From contig UQTW01000004.1 of the NCBI GenBank assembly GCA_900544115.1, forward strand, positions 18,302 through 82,301: DNA of 64,000 nucleotides, written 5' to 3'. This stretch comes from an uncultured Collinsella sp. (GTDB lineage Bacteria; Actinomycetota; Coriobacteriia; Coriobacteriales; Coriobacteriaceae). Under the pieces are notes generated by a model, which saw only the letters and a list, made by a program, of their open reading frames with translations, was not told the DNA's origin and searched no databases. Position numbers and translations under genes: made by a program. The first letter of the stretch is position 1, and every line of letters begins with the position of its first letter. Shown in pieces: positions 1,417 to 30,264 of the stretch.

Positions 1417-2397
1417 ATGGATCCCAACAAGCGTCCCGACGACATGGTGCGTATCACCACTCCCGAACTCGCTCAGGCGTTCATCGAAGAGCAGGTTGCT
1501 GCAATCCGTGAGCAGATCGGCAACAAGAAGGTCCTGCTGGCCCTTTCCGGCGGCGTTGACAGTTCTGTCGTCGCGGCGCTGCTGATCAAGGCCATCGGCA
1601 AGCAGCTCATCTGCGTGCACGTGAACCACGGCCTTATGCGCAAGGGCGAGAGCGAGCAGGTCGTCGACGTGTTCAAGAACCAGATGGACGCCAACCTGGT
1701 TTACGTGGACGCTACCGACCGCTTCCTCGATAAGCTCGTCGACGTCGACGAGCCCGAGGCCAAGCGCAAGATCATCGGCGCCGAGTTTATCCGCGTGTTC
1801 GAGGAGGAGGCCCGCAAGGTCGGTGACGAGGTCAGTTTCCTCGCCCAGGGCACCATCTACCCCGACATCCTGGAGTCCCAGGATGGCGTGAAGGCTCACC
1901 ACAACGTTGGCGGCCTGCCCGAGGACCTGCAGTTTGAGCTCTGCGAGCCCGTTAAGCTGCTGTACAAGGACGAGGTGCGCGTCGTGGGCCGCGAGCTCGG
2001 CCTGCCCGAGAACATGGTTGAGCGTCAGCCGTTCCCCGGTCCTGGCCTGGGCGTCCGCTGCCTTGGCGCCATCACCCGCGACCGTCTCGAGGCGCTGCGC
2101 GAGGCCGATGCCATCGTGCGCGAAGAGATCGACAAGGCCGGCCTGACCATCTGGCAGTACTTTGCCGTAGTGCCCGATTTCCGCGCTACCGGTGTGCGCG
2201 AGGGCAAGCGCGCCTACGACTGGCCCTGCATTATTCGCTGCATCAACACCGTCGACGTCATGACCGCCGAGGTGCCCGAGCTCGATTGGGCGCTGCTCAA
2301 GCGCATTACCGCTCGCGTGACCGCCGAGGTCCCCGGTATTTGCCGCGTTTGCTACGACCTCACGCCGAAGCCCGTTGGCACGGTCGAGTGGGAGTAA
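1417..2397 (+). CDS. guaA: GMP synthase, ATP-pyrophosphatase subunit. Only the GuaA C-terminal half is present; there is no glutamine amidotransferase domain.
   Basis: PP-loop LSGGVDSS, ...HHNVGGLP..., [11 protein letters not shown] and the terminal ...KPVGTVEWE align along the whole length with the GuaA C-terminal domain. The ORF begins in the interdomain region. Confidence 0.85.
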
Positions 2398-2432
2398 GCT
2401 AACTCAGCTGGTAGGCGACGAGAACTAGCAGA

Positions 2433-2461
2433 TGTGACAAAGGGACAGTCCCTTTGTCACA
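2433..2461. repeat. 29-bp perfect palindrome TGTGACAAAGGGACAGTCCCTTTGTCACA, copy 1 of 8
   Basis: Exact inverted repeat read directly from the sequence. It lies 36 bp after the guaA-subunit stop. Confidence 0.9.
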
Positions 2462-2478
2462 TCCTCGATATTATGTGA

Positions 2479-2520
2479 GGGATGGTACGCCACGCGGCGT
2501 GCCATCCCGTTCGTTATTTT
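2479..2520. terminator. Bidirectional intrinsic terminator: a GC hairpin plus T-run that forms the second half of an ~85-bp composite element
   Basis: Stem gggatggtacgcc/ggcgtgccatccc followed by gttcgttatttt. The stop of the convergent histidine-kinase gene (2514-2516) lies inside the T-run. Confidence 0.6.
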
Positions 2521-3662
2521 AATGAGCCGAGTGCGCGAGTGGGAAGGGTCACGAGCATGGTCGTTCCGCGCTCCGAGCTCTCTTCGACCTCGATGGAGCC
2601 GCCGTGGAGTGCGGCAATCTCCCAGACCAGTGCAAGCCCCAGCCCCACGCCGCCATATGCCCTGCTGCGCGATTTGTCGACGCGAAAGAAGGGCTGGAAG
2701 ATGCTCGTCTGGTATTGCTCGGGAATGCCCGGCCCCTGGTCGCGCACGCGTAGCAGCACGCGGTCGCCTTCGGCGCAGGCGTTGATTTGCACGGTCGAGT
2801 TGGGCGCGCTGTAACGTATGGCGTTTTCGGCCAAGTTGAACAGCAGCCGATAGATTAGCGTATCGCTGCCGATCGTTTGCGCGTCGCCCTCACTTGTAAG
2901 CGTGATGTCTTTTTGCTCGGCAAGGGGCGCCAGGTCCGTGAGTACTTCTTCGATCATCGGCGCCAGGTCAATCGCATCGTTGCAAGGGACACTGCGCAGC
3001 TCGCTCATCTCGAGCAGGGTCTTTGTCATGTGCGTCATCCGCTCGGTCTGCTCCTGCAGCAGCCCGAGCAGGCTCGCTGTATCGGCGTCGACGTCGGGGT
3101 GCTCGGCGCAAAACAGCTCAACCTGGGCCTGCATGAGCGCAAGTGGCGTGCGCAGCTCGTGCGCCGCATTGCCCGTAAACTGTCTTTGTGCGGAAAATCC
3201 CTCGTCAAGGCGGGCAATCATGTCGTTAAACGACGCGCTGCAGCGCCTGAGTTCAGAGGGCACGTCCTCGCTGATTTTTGTGTCGGCGAGGTTGTCGGGC
3301 CGCACGCTCTCGACTTGCGTCGCAAAGGAGCGCAACGGCTGCAACGCATGCCCGCTCACAAAGTAGGCCAGGACGCCTCCGAGCAGCGTCACCGCCGCAG
3401 TTATATACCAGCTCGTCGCGCCAAACGATTCTTGGGCGTCGTTCACGACGATGGTCAGCGCGTCGTCGAGCTCTTTGTTTGTCGGGTCAAATGAGCTGGG
3501 CGAGGCCGCCTCCACCTTGCTGTGCGCCGACGCTTCTGCACCAATCGAGTCCATGTAGCGCATGCCGGAGTAGCCAACCAGGCAATTCATAAGTACGCAG
3601 GTTGAACATATCAGCAGTGCCGTCATCAACGTGATGCGCCACTGCAGCGACAGCCGCTTCAT
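2514..3662 (-). CDS. Two-component sensor histidine kinase
   Basis: N-terminal transmembrane segments, H-box ...AHELRTPL..., HATPase motifs (DQGPGIP, GGVGLGLA). Confidence 0.85.
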   Translation of the reverse strand: MKRLSLQWRITLMTALLICSTCVLMNCLVGYSGMRYMDSIGAEASAHSKVEAASPSSFDPTNKELDDALTIVVNDAQESFGATSWYITAAVTLLGGVLAYFVSGHALQPLRSFATQVESVRPDNLADTKISEDVPSELRRCSASFNDMIARLDEGFSAQRQFTGNAAHELRTPLALMQAQVELFCAEHPDVDADTASLLGLLQEQTERMTHMTKTLLEMSELRSVPCNDAIDLAPMIEEVLTDLAPLAEQKDITLTSEGDAQTIGSDTLIYRLLFNLAENAIRYSAPNSTVQINACAEGDRVLLRVRDQGPGIPEQYQTSIFQPFFRVDKSRSRAYGGVGLGLALVWEIAALHGGSIEVEESSERGTTMLVTLPTRALGSLK

Positions 3663-4333
3663 TTGCCGTCCTCCATAACGTAGCCTTCGCCGATTCGGTT
3701 GCGGATGGGGTCGTGCCCCAACGCACCGCGCAGCTTTTTGCGCAGCGACGAGATATGCACGCGGGTCGCGTTGCTAAAGCTGTTGACGCTGCTGTCCCAT
3801 ACATGCTCGATAAGCTCTTCCTGGCTCACCGGCCGCCCCTGGTTAAGCATCAGGTATTCCAAGATGCCGGTCTCCTTGCGCGTGAGGGATAGGGTCTCGC
3901 CGCCCACGGAGGCGAGGCGCGCCTTGGTGTCAAAGCTCAACAATCCACAGACTAGAACAACGTCGTTTTGCGTAAAGCGCCTGAGCGTGAGACTGCGTAT
4001 ACGTGCCGCCAGCTCGTCAAGATGGAACGGCTTGGTGAGGTAGTCGTTGGCGCCCGCATCGAGCCCCGCTACCTTGTCGGAGACCTCGCCACGTGCCGAG
4101 AGCACAAGCACCTTGGTCTCACAATCAGTTGTCCTGAGTTGCCTGAGCACGGTCATGCCGTCGACATGGGGGAGATTGAGGTCGAGCACGACAAGATCAA
4201 AGGTCTCGACATCGAGCAGATCGAGGGCCTGCTGCCCGTCGTAGCAGCAGTCGACGCTATAGGCCAAGTTGCGCAGGCTGCGTGCGATCGCATCGCACAG
4301 CGCCCGCTCGTCCTCGATGACCAAGATGCGCAT
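3659..4333 (-). CDS. OmpR-family response regulator
   Basis: MRILVIEDERALCDAI... receiver domain with the phospho-acceptor D, and a C-terminal winged-helix. It overlaps the kinase gene by 4 bp, indicating an operon. Confidence 0.85.
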   Translation of the reverse strand: MRILVIEDERALCDAIARSLRNLAYSVDCCYDGQQALDLLDVETFDLVVLDLNLPHVDGMTVLRQLRTTDCETKVLVLSARGEVSDKVAGLDAGANDYLTKPFHLDELAARIRSLTLRRFTQNDVVLVCGLLSFDTKARLASVGGETLSLTRKETGILEYLMLNQGRPVSQEELIEHVWDSSVNSFSNATRVHISSLRKKLRGALGHDPIRNRIGEGYVMEDGK

Positions 4334-26108: not shown

Positions 26109-26807
26109 CTACAGGTCGCGTGCTCGATAGACCTTGGTACTGATGGCGCAACTCAGTGCAAAGAGCACGAGGGCCAGTACGGCAATTCCTGCGCACAGGC
26201 AGCCGAGGACGGCGGGATCGGGATTTGCTCCGGCAATCGACATAAGCCAGTTGCTAATGGGGTTGGAGGAGCTCAGCGTGGCCATGGCAAAGCACCCGAG
26301 CAGGGCAAACAGGCCAACGGATAGGCGCAGCGCCTCCATGTGTCCAAGGCGAAAGAACGGCGGCTGCGCCAAAAACACCATCATGAGGGAGATGAGCATC
26401 GATGCTGCCGAGGCTATTGCGATCTCAAAGACCGTCTGTCCCGTCGAAGGAATGCCCGCGCTGTTGAAGAGCGGGATGGCGACGATACTCAAAAGCGTAG
26501 CTGCACATGCCATGGCGGCGGAGAAGACAATAACGCTCAGGTAGCGGGCACAAATAATGTCTTTGCGCGAGAAGGGCAGCGTTGCCCGATAACGCTCCCA
26601 TCCGTTTTGATTGTCGAAGCCGGCCAGCGAGCTCATGACCATGATGGGTGACATGGCGCTGACCGCGCAGGCGCCGGCGCTCATGCCGGAATCGCCGTCC
26701 GATGCGTTGGCAAGGGTCAGCACGACGAATATGAACAAGCCGACACCCGCAATGCTCGGGACAAGTGAGCGAACGATGGCGAGCTCGGACATAAAGGCGC
26801 GTTTCAT
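26109..26807 (-). CDS. ABC-2 type transporter permease
   Basis: Six transmembrane segments. It overlaps the upstream ATPase gene by 4 bp. Confidence 0.65.
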   Translation of the reverse strand: MKRAFMSELAIVRSLVPSIAGVGLFIFVVLTLANASDGDSGMSAGACAVSAMSPIMVMSSLAGFDNQNGWERYRATLPFSRKDIICARYLSVIVFSAAMACAATLLSIVAIPLFNSAGIPSTGQTVFEIAIASAASMLISLMMVFLAQPPFFRLGHMEALRLSVGLFALLGCFAMATLSSSNPISNWLMSIAGANPDPAVLGCLCAGIAVLALVLFALSCAISTKVYRARDL

Positions 26808-27685
26808 TTCGAAGCCCCTTTCAGCGTGAGGCGCAGATAGTCATCAATGGTTGCCCGGTCGCAGGGAATCTCGGGAAAGGCCTCGAGCGCCTCGCGACGG
26901 TTGGGCACGAGCACGTCCACGCTATAGGCGTGGTGGGCGGCGCGAGCGCCTTCGACGCAAGCCATAAGCTCGGCGGCCTGTGCTTGGGTGCAGTGGGCGA
27001 TGCCGGCGCGGTCGGTAATGTCCTCGCGCGGCAGGTCAAACACAATCGAACCGTTATCGATGCAGATGACGCGGTCGGCGGCGCGATCGAGGTCGGACGT
27101 AATGTGGCTCGAGAGCAGCACACTGTGCTGGCCGTCGGCGACAAAGGCGAGCAGCTCATCGAGCAGCTCCTCGCGCGCCATGGGATCGAGGCCCGCAGTG
27201 GCTTCGTCCAAAACGAGCAGCTTGGCATTGTGGCTGAGCGCGCAGGCGAGCTGCAGCTTCATGCCCATGCCGCGGGAGAGGTCTTTTACCTTGGCTTTGG
27301 GATCAAGGCCAAATCGGTCGATAAATCTGGCGAATGTTTCGCGACTCCATGTGGGGTACGCCGGGCCTACGAGCGTCTCGATCTGGCCCACCTTGAGCGT
27401 GGAGGGGAAAGGACACGTGTCCAGGACAAGACCGACGCGGGAGCGCAGGTGACGCTGTGCCTCGCCGGGCGCGTTGGCGTCGCAGTGCTGTCCAAACAGA
27501 TGCACCTCGCCGGCATCGAGCTTTATAAGCCCGAGCGCGGCGCGAATGGTCGTTGTCTTGCCGGCGCCGTTTGCGCCCACAAAGCCGACAATCTGGCCGG
27601 GCTCCACGGTGAGTGTGACATCGCGTAGCGAAAAGCGGTCGCTTACGCGGCGTGAAACGCCTTTGAGTTCTAGCAAGTTTTGCAT
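26804..27685 (-). CDS. ABC transporter ATP-binding protein
   Basis: MQNLLELKGVSRR..., Walker A GANGAGKTT, signature LSRGMGMKLQ, Walker B LLVLDEAT. The track ORF runs on into the GntR gene in another frame, which is an artefact. Confidence 0.8.
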   Translation of the reverse strand: MQNLLELKGVSRRVSDRFSLRDVTLTVEPGQIVGFVGANGAGKTTTIRAALGLIKLDAGEVHLFGQHCDANAPGEAQRHLRSRVGLVLDTCPFPSTLKVGQIETLVGPAYPTWSRETFARFIDRFGLDPKAKVKDLSRGMGMKLQLACALSHNAKLLVLDEATAGLDPMAREELLDELLAFVADGQHSVLLSSHITSDLDRAADRVICIDNGSIVFDLPREDITDRAGIAHCTQAQAAELMACVEGARAAHHAYSVDVLVPNRREALEAFPEIPCDRATIDDYLRLTLKGASK

Positions 27686-27708
27686 GGTATAGCCTTTCTT
27701 GCAGATGG

Positions 27709-28089
27709 CTACTGCATGGTCTCGGGGGCTACAAGGTCGAGCATCTCGTGCAATTTGTCGCGCGTGACGCCCAGGGTTTCGGCCTGCGTAGCGGCCTGCG
27801 CAAGCAACTCTTCGATATGGCAGAGCTGGTTTTCGCGCAAGAGTTCCTGGTTTCCCTCGGCGACAAAGCAGCCCTTGCCCTGCACGGTGCAGATAAAACC
27901 GAGTTGCTCCAGGTCGGCATAGGCGCGCTTGGTGGTGATGACGCTCACGCCCAGGTCGCTCGCCAGCGCGCGGATACTGGGGAGCTTGGCTCCCGCAGCG
28001 AGTGAGCCCGAAAGGATCTGGGCTTTGACCTGCGAGGTTATCTGCTCGTAGATGGGCTTGTCGCTCGAATTGGATAGGATGATGTCCAC
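27709..28089 (-). CDS. GntR-family (YtrA-like) transcriptional regulator
   Basis: 126 aa. The N-terminal wHTH ...PSIRALASDLGVSVITTKRAYADLE... is typical of short YtrA-type GntR regulators that control adjacent ABC operons. Confidence 0.8.
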   Translation of the reverse strand: MDIILSNSSDKPIYEQITSQVKAQILSGSLAAGAKLPSIRALASDLGVSVITTKRAYADLEQLGFICTVQGKGCFVAEGNQELLRENQLCHIEELLAQAATQAETLGVTRDKLHEMLDLVAPETMQ

Positions 28090-28116: not shown

Positions 28117-28160
28117 GTGTATATAACCGGTAAGCACAGTATATATACACTATGCACAGT
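28117..28160. promoter_or_regulatory. Inverted repeat GTGTATATA-N16-TATATACAC with flanking gcacagt direct repeats, in the GntR promoter region
   Basis: Read directly from the sequence: it includes a TATATA -10-like core 28 bp upstream of the GntR start. It is a candidate promoter/operator. Confidence 0.4.
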
Positions 28161-28200: not shown

Positions 28201-28513
28201 GTTTATCTCGATCCGTAACATCTGAAGTCAATTTTGGCGGCTAGATGTTACAGATCGAGACAGCCTCGATCTTCCTGCTGGTTTATCTCAATCTGTAACA
28301 CTTAGGCCTGATTTTGATGGCTAGATGTTACAGATTGAGACATTGGCTGCCCGCCTGCCAGTTTGTCTCGATCTGTAACAGGTAGAGGCTCAAAACCCGT
28401 CTTTCTGTTACAGATTGAGACGGAGATTGAGACGGTGTTGGTCTTCCCAACCGTTTATCTCGATCTGTAACATCTGGAGCCGATTTTGGCGGCTAGATGT
28501 TACAGATTGAGAC
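28201..28513. repeat. Tandem array of four 61-bp hairpin units at 80-bp period. CRISPR-like layout but not a CRISPR.
   Basis: Units at 28201-28261, 28281-28341, 28361-28421 and 28453-28513. Each is GTTTATCTCGATCTGTAACA-(25 nt)-TGTTACAGATTGAGAC with 16-bp inverted arms. Spacers are 19, 19 and 31 bp. Confidence 0.85.
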
Positions 28514-28623
28514 GATCCTTGAGGCAGCTGCCCGGTGCACAGCGAGCTCGGCTAATGAATTTGTCCTGATAGGTGCCCTGCTGCAGCATTTCGCGGCTAC
28601 AATAGTACGGTTACAACGACGTA

Positions 28624-30264
<1,641 letters not shown>

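Follow-up and report, generated by a model that had tools for sequence, protein, structure and literature searches.

The 64,000-nucleotide stretch of an uncultured Collinsella sp. analyzed here (contig UQTW01000004.1; hereafter, the window) contains, at positions 28201–28513, an array of four 61-bp dyad units that lies between a small GntR regulator with its ABC (ATP-binding cassette) transporter operon on one side and prfC on the other. We consider it probable that this array represents one locus of a dyad-repeat family that is dispersed in intergenic DNA throughout Collinsella, i.e., a cluster of the type formed by repetitive extragenic palindromic (REP) sequences, REPINs (REP doublets forming hairpins), bacterial interspersed mosaic elements (BIMEs), and Neisseria intergenic mosaic elements (NIMEs), and not a device specific to GntR or prfC. 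The array and its flank are composed as follows:

28201–28261, no strand: unit 1, with left arm GTTTATCTCGATCCGTAACA, 25-nt center TCTGAAGTCAATTTTGGCGGCTAGA, and right arm TGTTACAGATCGAGAC
28262–28280, no strand: spacer 1, 19 nt, AGCCTCGATCTTCCTGCTG, a unique sequence of fixed length
28281–28341, no strand: unit 2, with center CTTAGGCCTGATTTTGATGGCTAGA, located by arm-core and profile matches
28342–28360, no strand: spacer 2, 19 nt, ATTGGCTGCCCGCCTGCCA
28361–28421, no strand: unit 3, with center GGTAGAGGCTCAAAACCCGTCTTTC, its A/T core reversed
28422–28452, no strand: spacer 3, 31 nt, consisting of a 19-nt spacer (GG+TGTTGGTCTTCCCAACC) split by the second AGATTGAGACGG copy (28424–28435)
28453–28513, no strand: unit 4, with center TCTGGAGCCGATTTTGGCGGCTAGA, the loop nearest to the master sequence of the family
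28514–28542 (borders approximate), no strand: right flank, GATCCTTGAGGCAGCTGCCCGGTGCACAG, which moves together with the array

The original prediction, made from the letters of the window, had described four 61-bp hairpin units with inverted arms on the 16-bp scale and a period of about 80 bp, and all of this is borne out by the unit starts (28201, 28281, 28361, and 28453, at start-to-start distances of 80, 80, and 92 bp) and by Tandem Repeats Finder (TRF), which reports a period of 80. Each unit consists of a 20-nt left arm GTTTRTCTCRATCYGTAACA, a 25-nt center, and a 16-nt right arm TGTTACAGATYGAGAC, with complementary stretches of 18–22 nt that match at 86–94%. The 15-nt arm core TCTCRATCYGTAACA occurs in the 64-kb window in eight copies at ≤1 mismatch, every one within the array, and the remaining matches have three mismatches each (chance expectation for arm-core matches, 0.92; 0 of 100 shuffles reached 12); a profile search with the unit found no further copy in the window. 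Along the array, the arm cores flip strand at exact 40-bp steps, so that the gap within a unit and the gap between units both measure 25 nt. Loops 1, 2, and 4 are alike, as predicted, whereas loop 3, which had been called divergent, is more than that: its A/T center runs in the opposite orientation (CAAAAC versus ATTTTG). The predicted spacer lengths of 19, 19, and 31 nt hold as well; the third consists of an ordinary 19-nt spacer to which a 12-bp tandem duplication (AGATTGAGACGG twice, at 28412–28435, detected by TRF and also present in L058; L numbers are our labels for the loci and contigs compared) was added. The GC content is 0.46–0.48 in the array and 0.58–0.65 in the flanks.

A pattern scan with one genome per species returned at least 120 stretches with the unit, nearly all of them from Collinsella, often on several contigs of one assembly and with two arrays within 8 kb. 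Many dispersed copies had been named beforehand as the sign of a REP family or of MITEs (miniature transposable elements with inverted repeats), as opposed to a locus-specific operator, and dispersed copies are what we found. Among the matches listed, to which the counts in this and the next sentence refer, 387 units fell into 151 arrays of one to eight units (most commonly two or three, with 19 arrays of a single unit), 234 of 236 periods measured 79–81 bp, and 384 of the 387 units had a core-to-core length of 55 bp with a detector that allowed 40–75 bp. None of the 151 arrays lay inside an open reading frame (ORF), and together they occupy between at least 16 distinct sites, a lower bound from clustering of the DNA flanks, and about 50, from flanking protein pairs; by crude ORF calls on an incomplete sample, 21 sites are convergent, 15 tandem, and 14 divergent. 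The neighbors are ordinary housekeeping genes and, as read from their sequences, presumably include an NRAMP transporter, 6-phospho-beta-glucosidase, glutamate synthase, ClpB, DXS, and a LacI-type regulator, and the DXS and gltB/D neighbors are also annotated as such in regions of a 900-kb C. aerofaciens record. This record, which is labeled a plasmid yet has recA and genes for ribosomal proteins, carries the unit at 28 or more places; arrays of three, four, and two units were verified in two of its regions, and its first 150 kb, a dense core-operon block, contain no arrays.

Two side observations concern the material of this survey. The records NZ_OY725717.1 (L131–L133, L229, and L247) and, from Tsukamurella, NZ_LR1344xx (L238–L242) bear a "plasmid" label in PLSDB, yet they contain core genes (recA, ribosomal protein genes, hut genes, fadD32, and others); they are not plasmids but pieces of chromosomes from fragmented assemblies. 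Furthermore, a second hairpin family, ACCACCACAAAGG-N8-CCTTTGTGGTGGTT(TT), often adjoins the arrays (L051, L115, L020, L025, L034, L043, L046, L047, L055, and others) and made different sites merge in the DNA-based clustering. It has no copy in the window; it may represent a terminator that has been conserved, or else a further family of the REP-like kind.

What is conserved in the repeats was read from a position weight matrix built from 162 nonredundant units. The resulting profile is a near-perfect dyad, R-TCTCRATCTGTAACA-NN-TAG ... WWW ... CTA-NN-TGTTACAGATYGAGA-Y, with about 2 bits at most arm positions, W-rich triplets at the center and just beyond the arms, and little information elsewhere. 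No covariation between the arms was found at any polymorphic stem position: Watson-Crick pairs numbered 82 versus 80 expected under independence at positions 5/51, and likewise 79 versus 85, 107 versus 112, 135 versus 137, and 91 versus 100. It is the sequence of the arms, not their pairing, that is maintained. The loop center is nonpalindromic and is found in both orientations relative to the flanking genes (134 versus 135 at 3′ ends, 132 versus 136 at 5′ ends), and neighboring units have it in the same orientation in 98 cases and in the opposite one in 87, i.e., at random. The independent variation of the arms and the random orientation of the loops together argue for recognition of the duplex sequence.

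These numbers speak against an RNA-level element, in which the hairpins would act in transcripts as terminators, mRNA stabilizers, ribonuclease III sites, attenuators, or small RNAs, and of which one form, a structured RNA leader or attenuator, had been put forward in the original prediction. Many arrays do begin 5–15 nt past a stop codon, and the region is predicted to fold very stably (−165.8 kcal/mol, z = −14.4), but such a fold is trivial for inverted repeats. A leader or attenuator is expected to show a fixed orientation and compensatory base changes, whereas here the orientation relative to transcription is random, sequence is conserved instead of pairing, and arrays lie equally at 5′ and 3′ gene ends; moreover, the fixed length of the spacer between hairpins would be needless for an RNA role. 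An Rfam scan of the window yielded no family at the gathering threshold, a permissive scan of the region gave generic microRNA-type hairpin noise and sub-threshold CRISPR-DR matches inside the 12-bp duplication, and a promoter and terminator scan gave nothing above chance and no terminator-like excess. We thus regard a function at the RNA level as very improbable. Likeness of the arms to parS, CRP, and LacI-type motifs was assessed by eye and dismissed, the single literature match to GATCTGTAACA being an unrelated predicted mycobacterial CRP site.

Likeness of the loops to a master sequence, TCTAGCCGCCAAAATCGGCTCCAGA, indicates that the units share common descent: loops average 14.2 of 25 identities to it, shuffled loops 7.3, and in the window unit 4 comes near to it. 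Loop identity is 0.505 within an array and 0.458 between sites. The spacers are unrelated, with an identity of 0.350 within an array and 0.362 between sites, 10.5 of 25 positions in common between sites versus 9.8 in controls, and an information content of ≤0.3 bits, at a length that is 19–20 nt across the family. In 36 clusters of orthologous units, the per-site diversity was 0.053 in the arms (0.00–0.06 at most positions), values that are biased low because units were detected through their arms, and the central A/T triplet had a value of 0.026, the remaining loop positions one of 0.156, and the spacers one of 0.229.

Regular repeats separated by unrelated spacers of fixed length resemble the layout of CRISPRs, the clustered short palindromic repeats that are interspaced at regular distances, and the likeness ends there. 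CRISPRs have direct repeats of ~23–55 bp that are near-identical within an array, and spacers of ~26–72 bp that were acquired from invaders and turn over at one end; they come as one or a few arrays with a leader, and cas genes lie next to them or elsewhere in the genome. The repeats here, however, are 61-bp dyads whose centers differ within one array, the 19–20-nt spacers have been passed down to different species and have diverged by point changes in the ordinary way, and dozens of small arrays occur per genome. No cas gene or other Cas-related Pfam family lies within ~4 kb on either side; the original prediction, too, had noted no cas genes nearby and had argued, rightly, that the array is no CRISPR. 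Spacers 1 and 2 do have exact matches (19–21 nt) in three IMG/VR contigs (L146 4099–4117, L147 8929–8947, and L148 5942–5960) where two reversed controls have none, but these contigs are unrelated, lack arms, and have a GC content of 0.54–0.67, and since the counts are near chance, we judge the matches most likely to be chance. A CRISPR or CRISPR-like adaptive array with invader-derived spacers can hardly be entertained.

A BLAST search of a phage collection gave no match, and when viral contigs were scanned for the unit, 11 of 12 matches were Collinsella prophages with host flank. We considered the arms as a prophage attachment site and rejected this, as the junction lies ~70 bp beyond the array, after a CCACC...GGTGG hairpin, at two host sites. 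The prophages concerned form a Collinsella family with an integrase-like gene at the end (L135–L145 from IMG/VR, compared with L051/L115 and L094/L124), in which this hairpin marks the junction. Integron attC sites were discarded by eye: R′′/R′-like heptamers are misplaced, 19-nt cassettes are implausible, and the dozens of loci lack an integrase.

The arrays are variable within and between lineages. Copy number differs at every site, by whole 80-bp periods that recombination between arms removes or duplicates. Where an array is short or has just one unit, its units are often hybrids of those in longer orthologous arrays (L027 versus L039; L017 versus L012), which shows deletion through recombination between arms or similar loops, and block duplication is seen in L035 (eight units) and L024. 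In L039, nearly the same spacer, aaaccaaaaccgtccSgMa, is found in two arrays 2.3 kb apart, which we take as evidence of exchange between arrays. Replacement of spacers (in up to 39 of 249 cases, versus 0 of 59 for loops) was considered as cassette exchange and rejected, as most of it can be explained by longer ancestral arrays that underwent different arm-to-arm deletions, and part of it by indel artifacts. In a distant sister lineage, L230, arrays occupy intergenic positions that are in part orthologous, and they have arms of ~16 nt, gaps of 25 nt, and a period of 81–82 bp, but the arm sequence differs (TTTGTC-NNN-GAT-RYGCACGG) and Collinsella-type arms are absent. With the same geometry and changed arms, the arms thus evolve in concert within a lineage.

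A classical MITE would explain part of this picture. Here, 61-bp units with 16–20-bp terminal inverted repeats would be moved by the DDE transposase of an insertion sequence (IS) elsewhere in the genome and would insert preferentially beside existing copies, which suits the inverted ends, the small size, the dispersal, the master-derived loops, and the existence of solitary units. Target-site duplications are missing, however: flanking 4-mers match at 1.51 positions in direct and 1.38 in inverted comparison, which reflects W-richness only. Nor do 130 loci of up to 8 kb contain a longer element with the same ends; the distant solo arms in them are three-mismatch chance matches in coding sequence. 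At orthologous sites the arms are far better conserved than the interiors, unlike in decaying MITE copies, and the spacer that accompanies the extra unit of the window is no former flank sequence. We hold this explanation to be improbable.

At the site in the window, the predicted location of the array between the small GntR regulator with its ABC operon and prfC was confirmed by Pfam matches for all four genes:

26109–26807, minus strand: ABC-2 permease
26804–27712, minus strand: ABC ATPase
27709–28089, minus strand: GntR regulator
28624–30264, plus strand: prfC (RF3)

The start of prfC as called in related contigs corresponds to position 28651, and the array sits between the two divergent promoter regions of GntR and prfC. 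An exact-protein look-up with GntR assigns the window to a Collinsella of the human gut. We aligned 12 distinct alleles from several Collinsella lineages with MAFFT. An orthologous array of two, three, or four units with the common unit center GGTAGAGGYTCAAAACCCG is present in at least six lineages, and unit 3 is common to all array-bearing alleles of the site in these lineages. Among contigs whose GntR protein is 100% identical, three alleles exist, with no units (L001, L007, and L010), three units (L002–L006, L008, and L009), or four units (the window). The three-unit allele is a 92-bp deletion that joins the right arms of units 3 and 4, so that unit 4 is gone; its unit 1, which in the window matches the profile at an E value of 3e-15, is identical except for one arm base. 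Spacer 1 is also kept in alleles of this site and has no likeness to spacers elsewhere. Array-bearing alleles of several species have right flanks homologous to GATCCTTGAGGCAGCTGCCCGGTGCACAG, and the empty allele has neither this flank nor the array. As the empty allele thus lacks both the array and a flank that every array-bearing allele has kept, it is a derived deletion. That the GntR protein is identical despite zero, three, or four units argues that the array is dispensable for the adjoining genes, and any effect of it on the expression of prfC or GntR is expected to be incidental. At 28534–28548, in the right flank, a degenerate arm-like motif can be seen by eye, and its counterpart in L002, GCTACAGAGCGAGCT, fits the right arm at ~11 of 15 positions; this may be a decayed former unit.

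The alleles also speak against the proposal, made in the original prediction, that the array serves the YtrA-like GntR regulator next to it as a platform of several operators. Its position upstream of the GntR/ABC operon, its dyad symmetry, and the GT..AC core of the arms are in favor of this, but the GT-N-AC signature, as a motif, is too short to count for much, the units occur at dozens (~16–50) of unrelated sites, and the array is absent next to an identical GntR protein, whereas an operator of this kind should be a regulon-specific, co-inherited site. The half-sites, moreover, lie 40 bp apart, which to our knowledge is unlike known GntR operators. A better-placed inverted repeat, GTGTATATA (28117–28125)-N16-TATATACAC (28142–28150), is located upstream of the start codon of GntR (28089, minus strand), at a distance of 28–60 nt, and no allele has lost it, not even the empty one; from its position and conservation, it is plausibly the better operator or promoter candidate for the regulator. 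A platform role of the array is accordingly very remote.

The independent conservation of the arms and the rigid spacing suggest that the element is most likely recognized as duplex DNA by a sequence-specific trans-acting protein. The homogeneity of the arms within each lineage would be upheld by such a protein, and their concerted change between lineages would be explained by it.

It could in principle be a housekeeping protein of the host. The arrays would then be architectural sites, lattices for a nucleoid-associated protein, gyrase, or topoisomerase, selected by the host for supercoiling or operon insulation and not upheld by any selfish or element-encoded activity; for E. coli BIMEs, a binding-lattice function for gyrase and host proteins has been proposed. 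Such a role would fit the likeness of the arms to duplex-DNA recognition sites, the rigid 25 nt of both gaps, and the conservation in situ, which is 5–10 times better for the arms and the central A/T triplet than for the spacers. It would also fit the enrichment of arrays between convergent and divergent operons (35 of 50 sites among the matches listed), although that figure rests on crude ORF calls and an incomplete sample. On the other hand, the array was lost at the present site without visible consequence, copy number differs at every site, the family is confined to one genus, and the concerted arm change in the sister lineage suits a co-evolving, dedicated partner better than a housekeeping protein. 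On balance, we find host architecture unlikely.

For the dispersed family with a dedicated partner, a candidate gene was found outside the window. In Collinsella, an ORF family of ~358 amino acids is bracketed on both sides by arrays in 10 of 10 genome loci and in 42 of 42 complete metagenome loci (e.g., L024 5004–6098, L229 4001–5077, and P0001), with one to five units per side and gaps of 13–49 bp. The gene is single-copy in the 900-kb C. aerofaciens record. Its product is annotated as hypothetical and has a sub-threshold match to Pfam DUF559 (E of 0.008–0.03); a comparison with NCBIfam, PDB, and Pfam at E ≤ 0.01 gave no match, and the family comprises 4801 cluster representatives at E ≤ 1e-3. 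The AlphaFold model is confident (predicted local distance difference test score, pLDDT, of 90.9). In the family, D266, E280, and G283 are invariant and D282 and K286 nearly so, and the invariant acidic residues fit a PD-(D/E)XK site. The Vsr-like clade of PD-(D/E)XK nucleases contains the structures 1cw0, 3hrl, and 3r3p (PMC3424549). By its modeled Vsr-like fold and its conserved acidic and lysine residues, the protein falls within the Vsr/DUF559 clade and is a predicted nuclease; as a whole, it is predicted to be an AbiEi-like winged helix-turn-helix (wHTH) domain fused to a Vsr/DUF559-type PD-(D/E)XK nuclease. Between Collinsella and L230 orthologs, the N-terminal region is the most diverged. 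A hypothetical gene of ~240 amino acids forms a conserved pair with the nuclease gene as its upstream partner; in L232 and L236 these genes overlap and make up an operon, and in Collinsella they have an array between them.

Relatives of the nuclease gene in other lineages are bracketed as well, each by repeats of its own. These are arrays with the variant arms in L230, arrays of a 30-bp-period repeat in L237, two copies of a 64-nt palindrome at 92% identity in L231, ~90-nt hairpins in L233 and L234, and a 131-nt repeat in Tsukamurella (L238). The bracketing in L230, L231, L233, L237, and L238 is well above within-locus controls, of which 0/89, 0/55, 0/48, 0/40, and 0/29 reach such scores. The Tsukamurella repeats are also found at 10 and 4 places, and the three examined are solo copies between housekeeping genes; together with a bracketed gene, such solo copies form a REPIN-like pattern. 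This cross-taxon comparison comes from individual look-ups, as a metagenome scan for distant relatives gave only close Collinsella orthologs. Two further features of these loci are worth recording. The 1.6-kb contigs L233 and L234 end 60–85 bp beyond their bracketing hairpins, which looks like a collapsed multicopy IS-like element. In L237, what looks by eye like a tRNA gene (2120–2195) lies directly upstream of the nuclease relative and its repeat arrays (2282–4180), a layout typical of integrated elements.

We tentatively regard the association of the nuclease gene with the arrays as a lead, and the protein as a possible cognate partner. In the mechanism that we propose, this single-copy AbiEi-like wHTH and Vsr/DUF559 protein, the best candidate that we have though a doubtful one, would relate to the arrays as REP-associated tyrosine transposases (RAYTs) relate to REPINs. 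It would bind the paired arms, repair or gene conversion triggered by its nuclease activity would seed or homogenize units, and it would co-evolve with the arm sequence. The 61-bp arrays of Collinsella, with their 40-bp arm spacing, would be non-autonomous products of this nuclease family. More broadly, the actinobacterial AbiEi-like/Vsr-DUF559 family could conceivably, judging from gene neighborhoods, be the cognate partner of lineage-specific palindromic repeats, a counterpart of the RAYT-REPIN pairing with a different, duplex-DNA-recognizing class of enzyme.

Besides the low bias in arm diversity, several observations weigh against the repeat-family reading and its proposed partner. We saw neither transposition events nor target-site duplications nor an autonomous partner, so that mobility is inferred, and the unrelated spacers of fixed length within an array fit neither simple tandem duplication nor insertion at a set distance. 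The arrays may also have a role beneficial to the host. As for the nuclease gene, the tally over 12 loci is six with clear bracketing, one with weak bracketing (L239), and five negative; no bracketing repeats occur in L232 and L236, which are syntenic and have the operon with the upstream gene, nor in any of the three loci chosen blind to genomic context (L243, L244, and L246). The Collinsella NRAMP gene, furthermore, is likewise flanked by arrays, one of them only ~30 bp away from the gene and the other, beyond its opposite end, ~1 kb away. The arrays flanking it are found at L039 2520–2734 and 5020–5234, and also in L062 and L026.

Searches of the literature by sequence, organism, and concept yielded no published description of the repeat family or of an association of DUF559/AbiEi proteins with repeats. 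Collinsella is among the most prevalent Actinobacteria of the human gut. Its intergenic loci, dozens in number, at which strains differ from one another by whole 80-bp units, are ready-made variable number tandem repeat (VNTR) markers for strain typing, and as several contigs end at or within arrays, these may be a cause of assembly breaks. In annotation, automated tools or readers may flag such arrays as CRISPRs, operators, or riboswitch-like leaders, although no such label applies to them in Collinsella. Should the link to the nuclease hold, a second, unrelated class of enzymes would live in long-term association with genomic repeats, and a widespread family of hypothetical proteins would gain a function.

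Set beside known systems, the arrays show REP-like population behavior in Actinobacteria, but their conserved half-sites are duplex ones, pairing is not under selection, and the spacing has a CRISPR-like regularity. Mycobacterial interspersed repetitive units (MIRUs), of the VNTR type, are likewise actinobacterial, dispersed intergenic tandem arrays with a period of 40–100 bp that vary between strains by whole units. They are direct repeats conserved over the whole unit, however, whereas the Collinsella units keep only their inverted arms and a few positions of the loop, with spacers that bear no relation to one another. In Neisseria, NIMEs are intergenic mosaics in which conserved repeats of ~20 bp (dRS3) flank variable segments, much as the arms flank variable gaps here; dRS3 differs in sequence and is itself a dyad, the flanked segments are 50–150 bp long and belong to repeat families, and dRS3 is a target of prophage integration, whereas the Collinsella prophage junction lies ~70 bp away, at the other hairpin. 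On these counts the arrays are not of the NIME/dRS3 kind. The BIMEs of E. coli are also intergenic clusters in which a short conserved element alternates in orientation, with a copy number that varies between strains and with known or proposed duplex-binding host proteins. Their linkers have a few conserved motifs, whereas both Collinsella gaps have a set length of 25 nt and no set sequence, so that the arrays share the alternation and not the linkers, and the repeated element is no REP stem-loop. REP clusters are covered in PMC3733652, as is dRS3, which appears there as CGTC-1. In the same source, a REP is a stem-loop of 20–40 bp with a stem of 5–13 bp, a loop of 2–20, and a GTAG or CGTC tag at one end, and the phyla listed for such REPs exclude Actinobacteria/Actinomycetota (PMC3733652). 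The profile of the Collinsella repeat has no such tag, its arms are not self-complementary, and a whole unit would have a stem of 16–20 bp and a loop of ~21–25 nt.

REPINs, which with their RAYT transposases occur in Pseudomonas and enterobacteria, come nearest in organization, as two conserved short inverted sequences at a fixed distance form the replicating unit (PMC3116915, PMC3337134), and the Collinsella units are such inverted pairs, extragenic and repeated. The likeness extends to copy numbers of tens to hundreds, to singlets and ordered clusters, to lineage-specific sequence, and to a single-copy gene bracketed by repeat clusters as the presumed cognate enzyme. Yet the Collinsella arms are no small palindromes, carry no GTAG/CGTC tag, and show no sign of pairing selection, and the clusters have unrelated spacers of fixed length where REPIN clusters are near-identical tandem copies including their flanks. 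The candidate enzyme, too, is predicted to be an AbiEi-like wHTH with a Vsr/DUF559 PD-(D/E)XK nuclease, not an HUH tyrosine transposase: the array-bracketed gene encodes no Y1 transposase (IS200/IS605-like HUH), and none was identified otherwise, though no genome-wide search for one was made. The family thus shares with these systems an intergenic, dispersed, clustered, and copy-variable behavior but lacks the defining feature of each: the Collinsella repeats are closest to REPIN/RAYT, BIME, and NIME and a member of none of them.

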